Origin: Candidatus Jordarchaeales archaeon
GTDB lineage: Archaea > Asgardarchaeota > Jordiarchaeia > Jordiarchaeales > Freyrarchaeaceae
Assembly: GCA_038889235.1 (NCBI GenBank)
Contig: JAWAHN010000001.1
Coordinates: 944,499-976,498, forward strand
Direction of reading: 5' to 3'
DNA: 32,000 bases
How positions within the stretch are numbered: the stretch's first letter is position 1; each line of letters begins with the position of its first letter. Below the pieces are notes generated by a model that searched no databases, was not told where the DNA came from, and worked only from the letters and a program-made list of their open reading frames with translations. Of the stretch, positions 2,167-26,498 are shown piece after piece. The position numbers were made by a program, and so were the translations under genes.

Positions 2167-2424
2167 AGCCCCCGCCCAGCTTAACCTCCTAGATCGGCGT
2201 GCTATAAATCTTTGTATATTCCTTCCCAGAATGGGAGACTTTCATTCCAACGCAGCGTATGTACTTTGTTTATGACTTTGGTCTATTCTCCTTGTTTTTA
2301 GATGGTTTGAAAATATTGTTTGACATTTGTGGGTCGCATAAAAAATATATAATGTCTGTAAGTATGATGTTTTCGAATAGAACTATTGAATGATGTGTGG
2401 AACTCGGTAAAGGGGGTTCAGTGT

Positions 2425-3405
2425 GTGTCTAAGATAGAGATTAGGAAGCTTCAGAAAACTGGGGGAAGCACGTTTCTTTTAAGTCTTCCCAAAGATTGGA
2501 TTAAGCGCATGGGTTTAAAGCAGGGGGATCTTGTAGCAGTAATAGAAAGAGGTGATGGCTCCCTTCTTGTCGACCCACGTTACTCTGAAAGGGAAAGAGT
2601 TAAGGTGGCTGTCATTGACATAGAATCAAGCCCAGATTTCACGAGAGAAATAACTGCTAACTTTCTTTATGGTTACGACGTTATGAGGATTCGTTCGAAG
2701 AATGGAATCACACCAGAGCAAAGGGAAGCAATTAAGCGCTCGCTTCAGCAGCTTGTCGGTGTTGAGATAGTGGAGGAGAGCGCCAAAGAAATCACTTTAC
2801 AGTGCTTGCTATCTCCTTCGGCTCTTTCGTTGAAGAAGACTATAAAGAGGACTTATCTAATCGCTGCTAGAATGCAAGAGGATGCTGTCACTGCGATAAA
2901 AGACAAGGATCTCGATTTGGCTGAGAGCGTTGTAGTGAGAGACGAAGACATAGACAGACTTTACTTTCTAATGGTTAGGCAACTTCGCTCAGCGATAATG
3001 GAACCGAATTTAGCGGAAAGAATGGGAATCAGCCCAATAGAGTGCTTGGACTATCGCGTTGCAGTTAAGAGCATAGAATCCATGGCGGACTACTCTGTTA
3101 AGATAGCAGAACAAGTTCACCTTATGCTTAACGTTAATGTGTCAGACAAAGTGATTGAAAGCATTTTAAAGATAAATCGCATAGCACACGAAATGCACTC
3201 TAACGCTATAGAGGCGCTCGTTAGGAAGGATGGTGTGCTCGCTGCCAAAACCATTGCGATGAAGCCCCAACGCAACCAAGCTGTAGAAGAGGCATATAAG
3301 ATTCTTGCAGGCGAACCTGTCGAGGTTTCTATTCCCCTCAGTACAGTAATAGATATGTTAGACCGCATCTCTGAGTGCGGCGTCGACATAGCGGACTTAG
3401 CATAA
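2425..3405 (+). CDS. phoU: AbrB/MazE-type DNA-binding domain plus PhoU domains (archaeal phosphate uptake regulator family)
   Basis: N-terminal RKLQKTGGSTFLLSLPKDW, LYGYD, PhoU repeats DEDIDRLYFL and ERISECGVDIA-like DRISECGVDIA. GTG at 2425 follows purine-rich AGGGGGT (ORF track starts at 2386). Confidence 0.85.
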   Translation: MSKIEIRKLQKTGGSTFLLSLPKDWIKRMGLKQGDLVAVIERGDGSLLVDPRYSERERVKVAVIDIESSPDFTREITANFLYGYDVMRIRSKNGITPEQREAIKRSLQQLVGVEIVEESAKEITLQCLLSPSALSLKKTIKRTYLIAARMQEDAVTAIKDKDLDLAESVVVRDEDIDRLYFLMVRQLRSAIMEPNLAERMGISPIECLDYRVAVKSIESMADYSVKIAEQVHLMLNVNVSDKVIESILKINRIAHEMHSNAIEALVRKDGVLAAKTIAMKPQRNQAVEEAYKILAGEPVEVSIPLSTVIDMLDRISECGVDIADLA

Positions 3406-3458
3406 TTAACCCTTCCTTCTCAGACAAGCATTTTCACGCGAAAAAGGAGGGAAACATT

Positions 3459-4322
3459 ATGAAATCTATTGATGAAATGGCTCGTGAAATACAGTCGCGC
3501 TTTAAAATAGTTGGCAGACTGGAAGAATTGAAAAAAGCGTTAGCGGCCAAACTAGCATCACGCCACATTCTAATAGAAGGAGAAGTGGGTGTTGGAAAGA
3601 CAACTCTAGCTGATGCCATTGCCAAGTATTTCAACCAGCCTATGTACCGTGTCGATGGGGACGAGAGATACACTGAGGCCAAACTAACAGGGTGGTTTGA
3701 TCCTCCAGCAGTGATGAAATATGGGTATACAAAGGACGCCTTCATCCCAGGGCCTCTAACTCTCGCAATGCTCGAAGGAGGAATCCTCTTCATAAACGAG
3801 ATAAACAGGTTGAGTGAATCTACGCAGAACGTTCTTCTCCCTGTTATGGACGAGGGCAGACTTGGAATACCAAAAATCGGTGAGATCACAGCGAAAGACG
3901 GCTTCCTAATTATAGCAACACAGAACCCGCTCGAGCACGTCGGCGTGACAGCTCTAAGTGAAGCATTGAGAGATAGGTTCTGCTGGATACGCATTGACTA
4001 CCAAAGCGAGGAGGAAGAAAGAGAAATAGTGGCGCTTAGATCCGGCTGCTCTAACCCCGACATAATAAGGCTGGCAGTAAAGATAGTGAGAGCGACACGC
4101 ACCCACGAAGACCTCCGAAGGGGCGCATCAGTTAGAGGCGCAATCGACATGGCACGCATAATCTCGCGGTTTGACGATGGACAAATAAAATCAAAGGATC
4201 TTTGGGTCCAAGTCGCAATAATGGCTCTGGGCACACGCGTAGAGCTAGAAGACGGCTCTGGCAGAACAGTCGAGGAGGTAATAAAAGAGATAGTTGAAGA
4301 ATGCTTCGAGGATTTTCATTAA
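3459..4322 (+). CDS. MoxR-family AAA+ ATPase
   Basis: Walker A GEVGVGKT, Walker B-like ILFINEINR, IATQNP, ALRDRF, GASVRGAID. ATG 3459 follows AGGAGG. Followed by a VWA gene. Confidence 0.9.
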   Translation: MKSIDEMAREIQSRFKIVGRLEELKKALAAKLASRHILIEGEVGVGKTTLADAIAKYFNQPMYRVDGDERYTEAKLTGWFDPPAVMKYGYTKDAFIPGPLTLAMLEGGILFINEINRLSESTQNVLLPVMDEGRLGIPKIGEITAKDGFLIIATQNPLEHVGVTALSEALRDRFCWIRIDYQSEEEEREIVALRSGCSNPDIIRLAVKIVRATRTHEDLRRGASVRGAIDMARIISRFDDGQIKSKDLWVQVAIMALGTRVELEDGSGRTVEEVIKEIVEECFEDFH

Positions 4323-6620: not shown

Positions 6621-8024
6621 TCATTTGGGTCTATTCGTGCAAACATTTTCCACTATATACTCTGCAATCTGCTCGGCTTTTTGTTTAAGTTTTTCTGTTA
6701 TGTACCCTTTAATAAATGCTTCTTCGAGCGCGTTCTTGTCTATGATTCTTAGAGTTCCGTCAGGAAGCTGCACAACGTCAATTTCTAGGTCCACATATCT
6801 TATTTTTCCAGGGTAAATTTCTATTGGGGTGTTTATGTTGTGAAATGCGCCCTTGAACTCCCCGTTTTTAGAGTAATATTCTGTTCTGAAGAACCACTCG
6901 CCTACCCTAACTCTAGTTATGCCGTAATCTCCTTCCTCTTTCGGAACGTTCAGTCCGTCATAATATCCCCCCTCAGTGAAGCTTCTCTTTACAACTATCT
7001 CCTGATCGTCCTTGTTTTGCAGTATTTTTCCGTGAAGAAACAATACTTTACCGTCAAGTTTTATGTGCTCAAAGCGCACTTTGCTCCCGTTTTTTAAAGA
7101 ATCGCTGATAGTCATTTTTTGAAGCGTTTCTTTGATCTCACTTCGCAGCTCTGGATGCTTTGAAATAAGATTTTCAGCAAAATCGACTAGAAGTGCAACA
7201 TCGCTCCCCAGTGACTTGTAGAAGTGGTGCCCGTCTATTGTTGGCGTAACGCTCCCTCTTATTTCGTCCAGTTGTTTTTTTGCGCTTGCGGGGAACTCAG
7301 CGATAACGGTTTCGTCGCCTTCCCTAATAAGTGTCGGCTCGTCTACGTTCTCTGAAAGAGAAATTATTTTCTTCAATTCTTCCCCTATTTCTTCTACTTC
7401 TTTTGTAATAAGTGAAAGGTCCGCTTTCCCCGCCGCCGTCCTGAAGATTATGCCTACCCCAGCAGGTTTCATTTTGTTACCAATCCGGTAGAGCACATTG
7501 CGTATATCTCTATCTTTAATTTTATTGCTCACCCCTACATGTCCACTGGAAGTCAGCACCACGTACTTTCCAGCAATAGCTATCTCCCCAGTCGCCTGTG
7601 GTCGCGGATCCACTTCACATATCCTTAGAAGCTGTATTTCCCCTTCTTCTTTACAGCTCCCCTTCACAGGAAGCTTCAGACATCCTATATCAGCGATTGC
7701 TCTATCTCCACGCTTACCAATTATGCGGCCAACATAGATGGCGTTTAAGTTGACTTTAGCTTTACGGATAATGACGTCTTCTAATTCCTCTCTAATTATG
7801 TTGACGACCCTTTCCAAGGGTTTTTTCTCACCTGTTATGACCACTCCCTGCCTGTTCTTTGTGTCGAAAACTTCTACATCTGGAGGTTCCATTGTCCTCT
7901 CGATTTTCAGCCTTTCAGCCAACACCGATGAACTTTGGGTGATCGATAAGCCATGTTTTAGGAAAAGCTTAGAGAGCGCCGTAGTATAGATTCCTCTAAC
8001 TCTAACCTGAATTTTTTCTTCCAA
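6621..8024 (-). CDS. fau-1: FAU-1-like RNA-binding protein / ribonuclease (RNase E/G-like N-terminus plus DUF402 C-terminus)
   Basis: N-terminal VRVRGIYTTAL, GHHFYK, C-terminal YHNINTP-like FHNINTPIEIYP..IRYVDLEIDVV. TTG 8024 follows GAGGTG. Confidence 0.85.
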   Translation of the reverse strand: MEEKIQVRVRGIYTTALSKLFLKHGLSITQSSSVLAERLKIERTMEPPDVEVFDTKNRQGVVITGEKKPLERVVNIIREELEDVIIRKAKVNLNAIYVGRIIGKRGDRAIADIGCLKLPVKGSCKEEGEIQLLRICEVDPRPQATGEIAIAGKYVVLTSSGHVGVSNKIKDRDIRNVLYRIGNKMKPAGVGIIFRTAAGKADLSLITKEVEEIGEELKKIISLSENVDEPTLIREGDETVIAEFPASAKKQLDEIRGSVTPTIDGHHFYKSLGSDVALLVDFAENLISKHPELRSEIKETLQKMTISDSLKNGSKVRFEHIKLDGKVLFLHGKILQNKDDQEIVVKRSFTEGGYYDGLNVPKEEGDYGITRVRVGEWFFRTEYYSKNGEFKGAFHNINTPIEIYPGKIRYVDLEIDVVQLPDGTLRIIDKNALEEAFIKGYITEKLKQKAEQIAEYIVENVCTNRPK

Positions 8025-8129
8025 TGCAAAACACCTCTTATCACGTCGTCTTAAAAGAAAAGAAGGTAACACCGGGGATAATTGCTTGATTAAACCAGCT
8101 AAGGTTCTTTTCTTTTCGTTATCCTTCAC

Positions 8130-8393
8130 TTACTCATCTCTTATTGTTTCCAGAATGGACACCGCGCTCCATATCTTTGTCCTACTGTGTAGAGGGCAAT
8201 TTGGATCTTGAGACGCCTCCTCAAGTATAGATATCGCGTTTGATGCTTTAACTGCGGGCGTGTACTTAGGTTCTTTAAGTGCTTCTATTGCCTCGTTTGC
8301 TGCTCTTCTAATGTTCCTTGGAGTAGTCGTATCCTCGGATATTTGTTTCAAGATAGCTATTGCCTGATTCATTTTTTCAAGGGCGTTGCTCAA
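8130..8393 (-). CDS. UPF0147 family protein
   Basis: ISEDTTTPRNIRRAA and DPNCPLHSRTKIWSAVSILE. TTG start after AAGGGGG. Confidence 0.88.
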   Translation of the reverse strand: MSNALEKMNQAIAILKQISEDTTTPRNIRRAANEAIEALKEPKYTPAVKASNAISILEEASQDPNCPLHSRTKIWSAVSILETIRDE

Positions 8394-8586
8394 GATAAGC
8401 CCCCCTTGAAATCGATGCATGTTTTAATTCCTAGTTGGGTGTGTTTTTAAAGGCTTTTTACTCTCATATTACCGAGCCAAGCTTTTTTACCTTACGCTTT
8501 CAGATAACTGTTGAACGCTTTATCCCTAAAAACATTTATTTTCATACATCTACTTAAGGTCAATACGTAGATTAATATCTTGTTCG

Positions 8587-18699: not shown

Positions 18700-18826
18700 A
18701 AATTACGAAAAATTGGCTCTCTTCTTTTCACACCCCATTCTTTTCCGGGGCTTAATTAAAGATTTTTCCATATTTTTATAAGAAATATCGCAAAATATAT
18801 CAAAATATTATTCATTCTCTTTAAAA

Positions 18827-18841
18827 CGAAAAATTTTTATT
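18827..18841 (+). promoter_or_regulatory. Putative BRE-TATA promoter for the structured element at about 18864
   Basis: CGAAAAA-TTTTTATT lies about 23-25 nt upstream of the first stem nucleotide, the expected archaeal spacing. Confidence 0.5.
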
Positions 18842-18860
18842 GAGAATCCCTCCTATTCAT

Positions 18861-18984
18861 GGTGAAAGGGTGGGTTGGACGGCGCAATAACCCCGGCTAC
18901 TTTTGTCCCCCCATAATCTTTTATCCCCCCTCCCCCTCACGCCCAATTAAACCGGGGTTGTAAAGTCTCCGACCCACCCTTCCC
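18861..18984 (+). ncRNA. Candidate structured non-coding RNA of unknown class
   Basis: GC-rich island in AT-rich intergenic DNA. Stem 18866-18879/18968-18981 (14 bp), stem 18887-18896/18952-18961 (10 bp), 55-nt pyrimidine-rich loop. Confidence 0.5.
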
Positions 18985-19060
18985 AAAAACATTTACATGG
19001 TTCTTTTCTCTTCTCTTTTTATTGGAGAAGAACAAAACTGAGGACTGGAGATGAGTTTTT

Positions 19061-20213
19061 ATGTGGCGTGTTGTTCGCCCAGACTCGATTAACGTGTGGA
19101 ACGATGAACAAGTCTTAAATAGGCTCAAACGTTACTACGAGGTTTTTAACGGCAGAAAGTTCGCTAAAATGATTATTGCAAGTAGGGTGGAAGTTGACGA
19201 CGACCTTGAAGCTCCCACAAAGAAGCTTTGGGATCAACATAGAAAGGCTAGTGGAGTTTTTCGCCGCCTCCTTAAAGAAATAGACCAGGGCGACACGAAA
19301 TTAAATAACTTAGACACTCCCAAGACGTCTTACCTAGATTTAAAGGTGGAGCTTGCAAAGCGAATATTAACAAACTGCCATTTTTGTGAAAGAAGATGTG
19401 GTGTAAATAGGCTGGCGGGGGAGCGGGGCTTTTGCCAGCTTGATGCTAAAGCATATGTATCGTCAGCCTTCCTTCACCTCGGGGAAGAAGCTCCCTTGGT
19501 TCCTTCGGGCACAAACGCCAGAGGCCCCCTCTGGTGGTGCAATCTTTTTTAACATGTGCACTTTCAGGTGCGTCTTCTGCCAAAATCACGACATTTCAAC
19601 TGTAATAGATGGCGTCGAAGTCGATGGAGAAAAACTGGCTAGTTTAGCACGCCATTTAAAGAGGGAGGGGGCCCGAAACATAAACTATGTCGGCGGAGAC
19701 CCGACGCCATCGTCATACGTAATTCTTGATGCTATAAGAATTCTTGCACGTACAGGGACAAACATTGTTCAGCTATGGAACTCCAATTTCTACTGTAGCA
19801 AGGAGTTGATGACGCTGCTTTTCGACGTCATAGACTTCTGGCTTCCAGACTTCAAGTATGGCAACGATAATTGTGCAGAAACACTTTCAAAAGTTAGGAA
19901 GTACTTTGACGTAGTGTCTAGAAATCATAAGCTCGCATATGATGAAACCGTCGTAGAGGGTAGCTCGGGAATGATAATACGTCACCTAGTAATGCCTGGG
20001 CACATAGATTGTTGCACAAAGCCTATTCTAGAATGGATCGCTAAAAATACTCCATTAGCCCTTGTTAATGTAATGGCACAGTACCATCCCGACTATCTTG
20101 TTCCAAGGAGTCCTGAATACAAGGACATAAACCGTAGGGTAACCGCCAGGGAAATGAAGGAAGCCTATGATTACGCTGACGCACTAGGCCTATTGTGGAG
20201 GCCAGTTAGCTAA
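19061..20213 (+). CDS. pflX: PflX-like radical SAM protein, spliced: join(19061..19514,19543..20213), 374 aa
   Basis: CHFCERRCGVNR..G..GFC, HLGEEAPLVPSGT|IFF, CTFRCVFC, VGGDPTP, WNSNFY, DFKYGND, IIRHLVMPGH, NVMAQYHP. The two track ORFs join in frame after removing 28 nt. Confidence 0.88.
19515..19542 (+). other. BHB intron in mRNA (28 nt)
   Basis: Central helix GCAC/GTGC, bulges AA|A and AA|T, 9-bp inner hairpin, outer pairs G-C and G-U. Confidence 0.88.
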
Positions 20214-20241
20214 TGGCCATGCCTTTTAACCTTTCCCTTGC

Positions 20242-21273
20242 TCACCACCACTTCGTCTCCCTGCACTCACCTATTACCGGTATTCTTTCACCGCAACGCG
20301 GGCATTTTCCGTCTTTCAAGTTGCACTTAAGCACCGTGAAACCGTATCTTCTGATCACTCTTTCACCACAACTTGGACACAGTGTGTCTTCTCCCTCTCC
20401 CGGGATATTTCCCATGTAGACGTAGTGCAGTCCCTCTTTCATTGCTATCTCCCGTGCCCTGGCTACTGTCGAGGGCGGAGTTGGAGGAAGATCTGTTAAC
20501 TTATAGTGGGGGAAGAATCTGGAAAAATGGACGGGTACATCGTCTCCAACATTTTCCTTAACCCACCTTGCAAACTCTCTAAACTCCTCCTCGCTGTCAT
20601 TCAGTGTAGGTATTATCAGGTATGTTAGCTCCACGTGTATTTTCTCCTCCTTCATGACTAGGATGGCGTCTAGTACTGGCTTAACCCCTGGCGCTTTACA
20701 AATTTTCTTGTAAAATTCATCTCTCATCGATTTGACATCAACGTTAGCGGCATCTATGTACGGCGCAATATTCCTCAAGGGTTCCTCCATTATGTAGCCA
20801 TTAGTCACAAGCACGTTCATTATTCCTCTCTCATGTGCAAGCTTCGCCACGTCAAAAACAAATTCGTACCAAATAAATGGTTCATTGTACGTGTACGCTA
20901 TAGATCTGCTTCCGCTCCTCTCAGTACGCTTAACTATCTCTTCCGGCGAAAAATCCCTAGTTAGACCGCTTTCAATAGAAACCTGCGAAATCTGCCAGTT
21001 CTGACAGTTTTGACAATGCAGGTTACAACCTACCGTTGAGATAGAGAATATGTTGCTTCCAGGGTAAAAATGGAAGAGTGGCTTCTTTTCTATTGGGTCT
21101 ACGGCCATTGAAGAAACCGCACCATAAACCAGCGTGAACAACTTTCCTCCCCTATTTTCGCGGACACCGCAGCCCCCTCGTTTGCCCTCTCTAATAACAC
21201 AATTGTGGGGGCATAAACGACAAACTACTGTTCCATCGTCTTTAGGCTCGTAGAATAATGCTTCCTTTATCAT
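20242..21273 (-). CDS. amrS: AmmeMemoRadiSam-system radical SAM enzyme
   Basis: CRLCPHNC...G.CGVREN, DPIEKKPLFHFYPG, GCNLHCQNCQN, YTYNEP, FSRFFPHY, C-terminal CPSC/CPRC. Start after GGTGA. Confidence 0.88.
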   Translation of the reverse strand: MIKEALFYEPKDDGTVVCRLCPHNCVIREGKRGGCGVRENRGGKLFTLVYGAVSSMAVDPIEKKPLFHFYPGSNIFSISTVGCNLHCQNCQNWQISQVSIESGLTRDFSPEEIVKRTERSGSRSIAYTYNEPFIWYEFVFDVAKLAHERGIMNVLVTNGYIMEEPLRNIAPYIDAANVDVKSMRDEFYKKICKAPGVKPVLDAILVMKEEKIHVELTYLIIPTLNDSEEEFREFARWVKENVGDDVPVHFSRFFPHYKLTDLPPTPPSTVARAREIAMKEGLHYVYMGNIPGEGEDTLCPSCGERVIRRYGFTVLKCNLKDGKCPRCGERIPVIGECRETKWW

Positions 21274-21423
21274 TGAGGTCACCTTCTCCGCTTCACTTAT
21301 GTTTGGAACAACAATGCACTCTAAGAAAATAATTATCCTTTGAAAGGAGAAATCTCTTTTGGAATAAAACATTTTTATTAAGAGGAATTTTTAGTCTCCC
21401 AAAAGGAGAGGAAGGGGATTCAT

Positions 21424-24354: not shown

Positions 24355-24783
24355 TTACGCATCTGAGGGTGGTGCTGTCTCTTGTGGTTTTCCATCTATT
24401 GTGGGTGGGCAAAGCCACTCAACTAACTCGTTTATTTTGTTACTTATTATCGTCACTTTTATTGCTCCCATCGGCGACTCCCTTTCTGGGGCACAAAAGT
24501 GAAGTTTACCCACGTACGCCGCTTGTTTGTTTAGGTAAAATGTCAGCTCGTTTTCTCTAATATTCCTCTTTAGAACCCCCCTTGCCGCCTCCACTATGTA
24601 TTGTTCACGCAATTTTTCATATATCTGTCGCAAGCTATCTATACCTTCAGCCTCACCCACCAGTCTTTCTTCATCCCCTTCTTTATAGGTCTGGTAATCA
24701 ACGTTTAGAATGTTTTTTAATGCCCTAATCACTTTATCTGGGTCTTCTGTCGGTTTTAAAGGCGTTTCCACCCTTATTTTCAT
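24355..24783 (-). CDS. UPF0201 (DUF54) RNA-binding-fold protein
   Basis: PLKPTEDPDKVIRALKNI and LNKQAAYVGK. Confidence 0.85.
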   Translation of the reverse strand: MKIRVETPLKPTEDPDKVIRALKNILNVDYQTYKEGDEERLVGEAEGIDSLRQIYEKLREQYIVEAARGVLKRNIRENELTFYLNKQAAYVGKLHFCAPERESPMGAIKVTIISNKINELVEWLCPPTIDGKPQETAPPSDA

Positions 24784-25324
24784 CCATTATCCTCCTAAGA
24801 AGTTCTCTAATCCTCATCTTGAACTCTTCAATGTCCCCCTCATTAACTATCATGTAGTCCGCTAATGCTAAAGCAGCTCCCAAGCCAACTCGCAGCTCTC
24901 TCTCGTCTCTCTCAACGAAGTGCTCTATACTTTTTGGGTCGTCTTCCCTTCCCCTCGAAGTCAACCTCTTTAAACGGGTTTTTGGTGAAGCATGAACACC
25001 TATTAACCTAAAGTCCGGGTAGTTTTCTCTAAATGTCTTAATTTCGGCTAAACTTCTTACTCCTTCTACAACTACTATTTCGTTTTTCTCCGCGTTTATT
25101 TTCGGTATACATCTCCTTGCAATAGCGTCCTCCCCCTCTTCTTCTCTGATTTTAATCATGAGCATGCCTATGTTTTCTGGGGAGGGAGGGATCCCCCTCT
25201 TCCTTGCAACCTCACGTATAACATCTCCCATAGAGACTACCGGTATTCCCTCGCTTCTCGCTACCTCTGCTGCAACACTCTTTCCACTTCCAGGCATGCC
25301 TACTATGCCAATGACCTTCTTCAA
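24734..25324 (-). CDS. UPF0200 NMP-kinase-like P-loop protein (often annotated dephospho-CoA kinase-like)
   Basis: GMPGSGKS, MGDVIRE, VEGVRS..E, RGREDD, RDEREL.VG. TTG start after GGGTGGGAG. Confidence 0.82.
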   Translation of the reverse strand: MKKVIGIVGMPGSGKSVAAEVARSEGIPVVSMGDVIREVARKRGIPPSPENIGMLMIKIREEEGEDAIARRCIPKINAEKNEIVVVEGVRSLAEIKTFRENYPDFRLIGVHASPKTRLKRLTSRGREDDPKSIEHFVERDERELRVGLGAALALADYMIVNEGDIEEFKMRIRELLRRIMDENKGGNAFKTDRRPR

Positions 25325-25355
25325 ATCTCCCACCCGGAGGAGTGCCCGAGCCTGA

Positions 25356-26498
25356 CTATATAAAAAGATATTCAGCACCTCCAGTTTTGCTCCGGGTTTT
25401 GAAAATTTCGCTCAAAACTTCTTCTATCAATTGCTGGTCTATTTTGTCTGCATTTTTTATGATTGCCCTATGGAACGCAGTTTTAAGCAATTTCTCCTTT
25501 AAATCTCTTCCAGAGAACCCTTCAGTTATAGAGGCTATTTTGTCGAAGTCACACTCAACTTTGAGGGGAATCTTCTTGGCGTACATCTCGAGAATCTGCC
25601 TTCTTTCCTCTAGCGATGGCAGCGTGAACTCGATTTCCTCCTCAAACCTGTTTCTAAGGGCCAAATCTAATAGCATTAAGTTGTTTGTGGCCCCGATGCA
25701 CACAACACCCGGTGTAAGCTCCAGCTTATCCATCTCTGCCAGGAGGGCGTTAACCACCTCAGTGACGTCGCCCCTTACACTTTGAAACCTTCTATCGAGC
25801 CCTATAGCATCTATCTCGTCTAAATATACGACACTTGGGGCTGCCTCTCTCGCTCTCCTGAAAAGCCTACTTATTTTACTCGCCGCATCACCTACGTGGG
25901 TGCCTATGAGTTCAGGCGATTTAACGAAGAAAAACTCTGCTCCAGCCTCATTAGCCAGTGCTTGTGCCGTCATCGTTTTTCCCGTTCCTGGAGGACCATA
26001 AAAGAGAATGATTCTAGGCGCCCAGTCACCAAAAGCTTCTGGGCTTTCTAAGTACTTTTTTATGATCATGCACTTTTCTTTAGCCCTTTGTTGTCCGACA
26101 ACATCCGCGAGTGTAATCTTGGGAAACCGCGTAGAGGGGCGTCTTTCCGCTTTCTTAATTACTTTAAATACAGTTTTATTGGTAATTTGCCCCTCACTAG
26201 GTGTCATGTCGACTATCTTGAAAGCGAAGTCTGGAAAAAGGGACCTATCAAAAAGCAGATCTCCCTTTTTGACGTATAATCCATCCCATTGTTCTCTGGC
26301 ATACGCTTGGAATACCTCAGGATTATCCACAGTCAATATAGTCTCTTTGTCCTCTCCTATTTCCCTTAAAGGGTATCCTAAAGGTTCAAGTTCTACTAGT
26401 ACTGCCTGTTTTATTCTCTCTTTGCTTTTCTTATGCTTTTTTAGACTTTTGTAGTATACTTTTTCCTTTTCTAATTCCTCATTAACCAAGTACTTCAC
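25356..26498 (-). CDS. Single-ring AAA ATPase (archaeal predicted-ATPase type with N-terminal EQW..LFD domain)
   Basis: GPPGTGKT, YLDEIDAI, GATN, RNRFEEEIEF, GFSGRD. GTG start overlaps the dnaG TGA. Confidence 0.88.
   Translation of the reverse strand: MKYLVNEELEKEKVYYKSLKKHKKSKERIKQAVLVELEPLGYPLREIGEDKETILTVDNPEVFQAYAREQWDGLYVKKGDLLFDRSLFPDFAFKIVDMTPSEGQITNKTVFKVIKKAERRPSTRFPKITLADVVGQQRAKEKCMIIKKYLESPEAFGDWAPRIILFYGPPGTGKTMTAQALANEAGAEFFFVKSPELIGTHVGDAASKISRLFRRAREAAPSVVYLDEIDAIGLDRRFQSVRGDVTEVVNALLAEMDKLELTPGVVCIGATNNLMLLDLALRNRFEEEIEFTLPSLEERRQILEMYAKKIPLKVECDFDKIASITEGFSGRDLKEKLLKTAFHRAIIKNADKIDQQLIEEVLSEIFKTRSKTGGAEYLFI

Follow-up and report, generated by a model that had tools for sequence, protein, structure and literature searches.

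A 32,000-nt stretch of the genome of Candidatus Jordarchaeales archaeon (the window; C1:944499–976498 of a 2.14-Mb, 8-contig, 95 % complete assembly) contains a gene for a radical SAM protein that is divided between two reading frames by 28 extra nucleotides. Our analysis indicates that this insert is very probably an mRNA intron of the kind known from cbf5, spliced by EndA and RtcB, in a new gene and a new phylum. A first-pass annotation, made from the letters of the window and their translations, had proposed a real intron with the bulge-helix-bulge (BHB) structure cut by the archaeal tRNA splicing endonuclease EndA. That proposal is now supported by an insert at the same site in relatives, a conserved BHB core, a covarying hairpin, an Ile codon restored at the joint, selection on both halves of the gene, the presence of EndA and RtcB, and the occurrence of split essential genes in the same genome. 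Positions given below are window coordinates, except those preceded by a contig name or accession.

Host gene and structure of the insert

The two halves of the gene correspond to an open reading frame (ORF) at 19061–19552 (163 aa) and to the frame of 19545–20213. Exon 1 encodes an N-terminal Cys-rich extension ending in ...APLVPSGT, whose orthologues all begin with MWR or MWK and can be aligned across residues 1–151. Exon 2 encodes the CxxxCxxC motif and the radical SAM core, with the cluster motif (C-TFR-C-VF-C) lying six codons past the joint. The C half matches Pfam Radical_SAM (PF04055: E value 1.4e-12, 48.6 bits against a cut-off of 29.5). The gene is present as a single copy in the genome, and its nearest named relative is found in a metagenome-assembled genome (MAG) labelled 'Candidatus Jordarchaeia archaeon' (87 % identity).

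The protein had been described as 'PflX-like' radical SAM. The second half of that description is borne out by the Pfam match, but the first is not, as the NCBIfam activase models all remained below their cut-offs: PFLA, NrdG2 and AmmeMemoSam_rS returned 24–36 bits against cut-offs of 131–232, with the halves as well as with the uninterrupted orthologues. No relative of the radical SAM protein was found by sequence in the PDB. Judged by its sequence, the protein belongs to the activase-like branch of the radical SAM enzymes and carries the Cys-rich extension at its N terminus.

The insert and its borders take the canonical hBHBh' form, with two 3-nt bulges on opposite strands, a 4-bp helix between them and an outer helix h of only 2 bp (Table 1). 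The minimum free energy (MFE) fold of 19495–19556 (-19.7 kcal/mol) contains the central helix, the bulge AAA and the 9-bp hairpin; in it, neither the second bulge (AAU) nor the bases of the two outer pairs are paired. Stability relative to shuffles of the whole region was modest (z = -1.8; 11/200 shuffles fold as well), and none of 2000 shuffles of the hairpin interior folded as well. When we required an all-Watson–Crick central helix, an inner helix of at least 9 bp and an outer helix of at least 2 bp, a search of both strands of the whole genome returned a single motif, located at the site of the insert.

EndA cleaves each bulge after its second residue and before its third (PMC2738675). Deletion of 19515–19542 gives GGC ACA ATC TTT TTT and a 374-aa ORF. 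Owing to a CAA repeat, four deletion registers (19512–19539 to 19515–19542) yield an identical mRNA; the cut is therefore not fixed by the sequence alone, and it is the BHB rule that picks 19515–19542. On re-reading the sequence, we found the coordinates, letters, helices, bulges and outer pairs given in the first-pass annotation to be correct throughout, and translation reproduced both of the products that it had named, namely the 374-aa ORF through GTIFF after removal of the insert and the 163-aa unspliced frame.

Table 1. Features of the interrupted radical SAM gene and of its predicted BHB intron (window coordinates).
Feature	Position	Strand	Basis and remarks
Exon 1	19061–19514	+	151 codons and the first base (A19514) of the split Ile codon; ORF list, translation
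Exon 2	19543–20213	+	Last two bases of the Ile codon, then FFNMCTFRCVFCQN...; stop at 20211–20213; translation
BHB intron (predicted), 28 nt	19515–19542	+	Fold, frame restoration, family comparison, interior shuffles
Outer (exon-exon) helix h, 5' strand	19507–19508	+	Pairs with 19544–19545; sequence
Outer helix h, 3' strand	19544–19545	+	Pairs G19508-C19544 and G19507-U19545; sequence
Central helix H, 4 bp, 5' strand (GCAC, in exon 1)	19509–19512	+	MFE fold
Central helix H, 3' strand (GUGC, in intron)	19537–19540	+	MFE fold; kept in relatives
5' bulge AAA	19513–19515	+	Fold; predicted 5' cut between A19514 and A19515; restores frame
3' bulge AAU	19541–19543	+	Cut rule and sequence; predicted 3' cut between A19542 and U19543
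Inner helix h', 9-bp hairpin	19516–19536	+	CGCCAGAGG-CCC-CCTCTGGTG, one G-U pair; fold

Conservation of the insert among relatives

We compared 186 loci containing both halves of the gene, collected by tblastn with both halves, the C half serving as the query in the search for frame breaks; the genomes of the same phylum include Atabeyarchaeia-1 (CP147779). The gene is present in 10 of 11 Jordarchaeia genomes, all 10 of which show a frame break just upstream of FF, and most other Asgard genomes have a continuous frame of 370–430 aa. An insert at the same codon was also detected in five metagenome contigs (tblastn). Within the genus the insert measures 28 nt, as against 27 nt in the sister genus; the Freyr-type genomes have 31 nt, and the metagenome contigs contribute lengths of 32 and 34 nt. 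The Freyr-type genomes, 3.5–3.8 Mb in size and in one case closed, belong to the sister family within the order and are taken here to be the Freyarchaeia/Freyrarchaeaceae of PMC11291895. No extra bases were found in 145 of the 186 loci; besides the 15 with an insert at the Jordarchaeia site and three Odinarchaeum-type loci described below, the rest differ by multiples of three.

All ten distinct intron sequences share G(C/U)AC...GUGC and the hairpin base CGC...GCG; their bulges are AA(A/U) and A(A/U)U, and the remainder of the hairpin varies in sequence and length. Across the 15 intron-bearing loci, the central helix is identical save for one C-to-U change, which still pairs as U-G. The MFE fold consists of the central helix, a 3-nt bulge and the hairpin in nine of the ten sequences, and for all ten introns at most 8/2000 interior shuffles fold as well into a closed hairpin (1992–2000 of 2000 beaten).

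Pair counts were made on the five Jordarchaeaceae sequences only, because the Freyr-type hairpins differ from them in length and contain an asymmetric bulge of 2 nt, and MAFFT cannot bring the two into register. In these five, 96 % of cells are paired, against 36–59 % when the 3' partner is slid. On four of five covariation measures, 1–2 of 500 shuffles reach the observed values; the fifth, the count of further pair types, was indistinguishable from shuffles (125/500). The outer pairs, G-C and G-U in the window and A-U and G-C in relatives, are kept in 5/5 sequences. The first-pass annotation had suggested aligning orthologues for presence of the insert and for compensatory changes in the stem, and both were found: the insert in every Jordarchaeia genome that bears the gene, and compensatory double changes at four hairpin pairs of the Jordarchaeaceae sequences. 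As a small sample of related sequences, the covariation is supportive and, alone, short of conclusive.

Restoration of the reading frame and alternative explanations

Cutting by the bulge rule produces GGC ACA A·UC UU(U/C) UU(U/C), translated as G-T-I-F-F, in every intron-bearing lineage, despite insert lengths that fall into all three frame classes (27 nt; 28, 31 and 34 nt; 32 nt); the 27-nt insert is in frame, yet it contains TGA. The spliced protein is colinear, without insertion or deletion, with the 145 uninterrupted orthologues, in 139 of which the junction residue is Ile, encoded by ATA, ATC or ATT. In Jordarchaeia, this Ile codon is divided between the exons, the first contributing A and the second UC, and the Freyr-type DNA has no contiguous Ile codon at the site. 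The comparison indicates that the conserved protein is recreated only by joining at the RNA level, at the bonds predicted from the BHB, which argues against ribosomal frameshifting or hopping.

Recoding of that sort, whether by a programmed frameshift or by bypassing of a 27–34-nt hairpin (hopping, as in T4 gene 60), would be in keeping with the stable hairpin right after the break and with the short CAA repeat at both borders in the window, and cbf5 introns were themselves at first mistaken for frameshift sites (PMC2738675). However, there are no matching take-off and landing codons, and a hop in the Freyr-type loci would yield G-T-F-F-F, never the conserved Ile. Since the insert lengths occupy all three frame classes, no single frameshift works. 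The features that are conserved, a 4-bp helix with two 3-nt bulges, are the signature of EndA, and we give recoding only a very slight chance.

A second possibility is a split gene, whose halves (163 aa and ~220–257 aa) would be translated separately and assemble afterwards, leaving the hairpin as an incidental or intercistronic element. The C-half frame in the window is open for 46 codons upstream and contains TTG and ATG codons, and an Odinarchaeum-type orthologue is annotated as two genes of 147 and 217 aa. In 9 of the 10 intron-bearing Jordarchaeia lineages, however, the stretch from the upstream stop to the C half lacks ATG, GTG and TTG codons, and the C half therefore cannot start on its own. 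Moreover, the break divides a conserved Ile codon and lies one codon ahead of a strand that runs uninterrupted in 145 orthologues, and separate translation would leave the conserved BHB geometry and the covarying hairpin without a reason. We consider a split gene highly improbable.

The sequences indicate strong purifying selection on both halves. The ratio of non-synonymous to synonymous substitution rates (dN/dS) within the genus is 0.11 for the N half and 0.01–0.04 for the C half; the synonymous divergence (dS) there is 1–3.8, and against the window it is saturated. No intron-bearing locus has a stop in either half; 13 of these loci are full length, and two metagenome contigs are cut in the N half. 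These data bear on the suggestion that the 28 nt are a junk insertion in a decaying pseudogene or a misassembly. The sequence is MAG-derived, and an orthologue in another family (genome G029) does have a 1-nt frameshift in a run of G. Against this, the insert occurs in 15 independent assemblies, and the gene is single copy, has no other lesions and shows dN/dS of 0.01–0.11 in its halves at saturated dS, such that decay or artefact is extremely improbable.

The favoured explanation, an EndA/RtcB-spliced intron, would operate as follows. The transcript would fold so that the GCAC of exon 1 pairs with the GUGC of the intron, flanked by the bulges, the intron hairpin and the short exon-exon helix. 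From the known biochemistry of EndA and RtcB, the former would be expected to cut between the second and third nucleotides of each bulge and the latter to join the exons. Joining would create the Ile codon A·UC, bring the CxxxCxxC motif into frame and allow synthesis of the 374-aa enzyme, with unspliced mRNA giving the 163-aa N-terminal fragment only. The spliced mRNA would thus encode a junction peptide, PSGTIFFNMC, and PSGTNARGPLWWC... would be the peptide contrary to splicing. The intron was probably gained once, before the Jordarchaeaceae and Freyrarchaeaceae split, and kept since, with selection presumably acting on the BHB core and the hairpin tip free to drift.

Splicing machinery and tRNA introns

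The genome encodes two PF01974 (EndA) genes and one PF01139 (RtcB) gene, all above the respective cut-offs. EndA-1 (196 aa, C1:1056164–1056754) has the catalytic Tyr, His and Lys, and in the PDB it is closest to the catalytic chains of the heterotetrameric EndA of Aeropyrum pernix (3p1z_B, 4e-47) and Pyrobaculum aerophilum (2zyz_B, 5e-39). EndA-2 (195 aa, C3:444282–444869) is 33 % identical to EndA-1 and has Val at the position of the catalytic His; RtcB is intact. The EndA of this organism is thus probably heteromeric, with one catalytic and one His-less paralogue, a type that has been associated with the splicing of cbf5 and of relaxed motifs (PMC2738675).

In the 95 %-complete genome, Aragorn found only 14 tRNA genes and called an intron in 10; one of these calls, of 1333 nt, is implausible. 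Evidently, most tRNA genes are too interrupted for standard finders. This low count fits the tRNA intron load reported for the lineage, ~2 introns per tRNA gene in Jordi- and Freyrarchaeaceae (bioRxiv 10.64898/2026.10.13.758758; PMC11291895). Neither of these two papers mentions introns in protein genes.

Other interrupted protein genes in the genome

Three further single-copy genes are interrupted in a similar manner. EF-2 is broken after DTPGHV by 29 nt (C1:445935–445963, minus strand). The insert is BHB-like, with a helix ACGU/GCGU and bulges AGA and AAA, and the cut rule gives HV-D-FTGH; Pfam GTP_EFTU continues across the joint, with profile positions 1–80 in exon 1 and 82–187 in exon 2. 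Inserts of 14 nt with BHB geometry were found in kae1 (C1:846098–846111, minus strand), where Pfam TsaD continues across the joint (positions 2–61 and 64–264), and in cbf5 (C1:835917–835930, plus strand), which has DKCLD in exon 1 and TruB_N 22–149 in exon 2. The end of cbf5 exon 1 (...EPLLNEGGGE-S-VLPV) seems longer than the usual TruB motif, which makes the borders given here provisional and leaves room for an additional intron.

EF-2 is indispensable, and the inserts in EF-2, kae1 and cbf5 must therefore be removed in vivo; with essential genes split in this way, the case for splicing of the radical SAM mRNA is greatly strengthened. The same genes bear on a regulated version of the mechanism, in which a real intron would be removed only under some conditions, switching between a truncated N-terminal iron–sulphur (Fe-S) fragment and the full enzyme, by analogy with HAC1/XBP1. 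The unspliced ORF does retain the entire Cys-rich N domain, and two independent introns adjoin the catalytic cluster motif (see below). Yet EF-2 and kae1, which are constitutive housekeeping genes, carry the same kind of intron, so that a special regulatory role is not needed, and the chance that splicing here is conditional appears very slim.

It is likely, on the evidence of the interrupted genes, that EndA/RtcB splicing in Jordarchaeia is pervasive and obligatory for many mRNAs, including those of EF-2, kae1 and cbf5, with repeated gain of introns. If true, this Asgard lineage would be the first prokaryote whose core protein gene expression routinely depends on intron removal, and how splicing stays ahead of coupled translation would become a question.

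One additional candidate intron is a 32-nt BHB of good quality at C1:1035681–1035712 (minus strand), with a GUUC/GAAC helix and a hairpin of at least 8 bp. Its removal would join frames of 120 and 134 codons, the downstream one with hexapeptide-transferase repeats; no Pfam match was found in the upstream, 120-codon frame.

Weight of the motif and of the comparative data

Several points weigh against the reading of the 28-nt insert as an intron. The outer helix is only 2 bp long, and its bases carry little independent weight because they are also constrained by coding. In one intron sequence (L011), the BHB is not the MFE fold, and in another (L008), the isolated interior's own MFE fold is not closed at the base. 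The covariation is carried by few, related sequences, and it comes only from the upper hairpin because the central helix and inner pairs one to three hardly vary.

The genome-wide scans belong on the same side. A scan for strict BHB motifs that merge ORFs returned 1419 merges at the true cut, against 1405–1462 at shifted cuts; with a stricter motif, the values were 54 and 42–52, again with no clear excess, and a mirror-image control on the reversed sequence gave 1591 versus 1568 motifs at moderate stringency. Given no clear excess in the scans, the motif alone is weak evidence, and the case rests on the comparative data. The merge scan is dominated by adjacent genes and open off-frames and so has no discriminating power; it did recover kae1, cbf5 (in the permissive scan only) and the radical SAM intron. 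At high stringency, the mirror-image control showed a small excess (34 vs 23, 13 vs 7 and 11 vs 1), which is unusable as a census.

A second intron in the same gene

In three genomes of another Asgard family (L025–L027), 29 extra nucleotides interrupt the orthologue within its cluster motif, where they separate ...C-T-F-R-C-A-Y from C-Q-N; this site is ~35 nt further downstream than that in Jordarchaeia. This insert, too, forms a canonical BHB. Its central helix is GCGU/ACGC, or GCGU/GCGU in one of the genomes; the bulges read AUA and A(A/C)U, the inner helix has 7 bp and the outer helix 2 bp. Cutting by the same rule restores CTFRCAYCQNYD. One of the orthologues, at CP091871.1:851656–853309 (GCA_001940665.2), which we take to be Odinarchaeum LCB_4, was deposited as the two genes of 147 and 217 aa noted above. 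Because all sampled intermediate lineages are without both introns, the simplest reading of the distribution is that the Jordarchaeia and Odinarchaeum-type introns represent two independent gains. Two independent insertions within ~35 nt would offer a natural system for the study of BHB intron gain.

Comparison with known systems

Among archaeal coding sequences, BHB splicing has since 2002 been demonstrated for cbf5 alone, and a 2009 review stated that no other gene had been confirmed (PMC2738675). In the literature that could be searched, cbf5 was the only archaeal coding sequence with confirmed BHB splicing, and no paper on BHB introns in Asgard protein genes was found; against that literature, the earlier claim of a new host gene holds.

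Compared with the cbf5 introns of Crenarchaeota (Aeropyrum, Sulfolobales and Desulfurococcales; Watanabe 2002; Yoshinari 2006; Yokobori 2009, PMC2738675), the radical SAM insert is likewise a short interruption of a coding sequence (16–44 nt in cbf5, 27–34 nt here) with a BHB or BHB-like motif and the same cut position. In both cases, the hosts have many tRNA introns, and presence or absence is lineage specific; the hosts of cbf5 introns have hetero-oligomeric EndA, as the present host probably does. The two differ in the host gene (a pseudouridine synthase gene for cbf5, a radical SAM gene here), in the host phylum (Crenarchaeota and Asgard, respectively) and in the motif, as most cbf5 introns are relaxed whereas the present one is canonical hBHBh'. 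For cbf5, splicing was demonstrated with cDNA and by cleavage in vitro, whereas that of the radical SAM mRNA is predicted by comparison. The radical SAM intron would also be one of many in protein genes of the same genome.

The BHB introns of tRNA genes in Jordi-, Freyr- and Atabeyarchaeia (PMC11291895; bioRxiv 10.64898/2026.10.13.758758) and in Thermoproteales share the size class, the motif and the presumed use of EndA and RtcB, and the extreme tRNA intron load occurs in the same lineage. Unlike them, the mRNA intron has no tRNA body for recognition, and its exon-side helices are built from codons. It must, in addition, be removed before or despite translation.

In 2020, Schwarz et al. reportedly described EndA acting on a BHB processing site in the 5' untranslated region of a Haloferax volcanii mRNA. 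That site is said to lie outside the coding sequence, where, unlike at the radical SAM locus, no reading frame is restored. In eukaryotes, HAC1/XBP1 mRNA splicing is likewise non-spliceosomal and removes a short, frame-changing intron flanked by stem-loops, with joining by a tRNA ligase (RtcB in animals). It differs from BHB splicing in its endonuclease, IRE1, in its motif and in being regulatory and cytoplasmic, and no homology with the radical SAM intron is implied.

The present case would add a textbook-quality BHB intron in a gene other than cbf5, conserved class-wide and accompanied by essential genes split likewise, and would bring BHB mRNA introns to the archaeal phylum nearest to eukaryotes. 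Should RNA data bear it out, the in vivo substrates of EndA would extend well past tRNA and rRNA, and an Asgard lineage would allow tests of how mRNA introns are tolerated without a nucleus. Such genomes would, in that event, be systematically mis-annotated by gene callers and pseudogene filters, as with the Odinarchaeum orthologue that appears as two genes.

Rejected candidates and neighbouring genes

Other identities for the insert were considered and set aside. As a mobile or repeated element it found no counterpart, with short-word blastn of the intron against the genome matching its own locus only. A self-splicing group I or II intron was rejected, 28 nt being far too short; no Rfam family, riboswitches included, matched either strand of the region 18800–20400 at an E value of 1 or below. 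The hairpin in the window is followed by CTTTTTT (19537–19550), reminiscent of a terminator, but relatives have CTTCTTC and a terminator scan made no call, so that the oligo-T-like run in this genome is probably incidental.

Among the orthologues, the break in genome G029 (L201, C9:32800–35200) was rejected as an intron, as it is a 1-nt frameshift in a run of G (AAC TGG G GTT GGT) inside NxNWVGGDP, reflecting either an assembly error or a real lesion. Long inserts of ~100 nt in the C half of L106 and L108 (Caldivirga and a Thermoproteota MAG) and of L202 (G024) contain no stop and preserve the frame, and we regarded them as presumed protein insertions.

We also screened the three same-strand pairs of overlapping or abutting ORFs in the window for further splitting. 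The pairs at 24355–25378, 6621–8420 and 2386–4322 each have complete, separate Pfam domains and are ordinary neighbours. Finally, a second radical SAM gene (20242–21372, minus strand) lies tail to tail with the intron-bearing gene, with 28 nt between the stops; it scores above the Pfam Radical_SAM cut-off and is uninterrupted.

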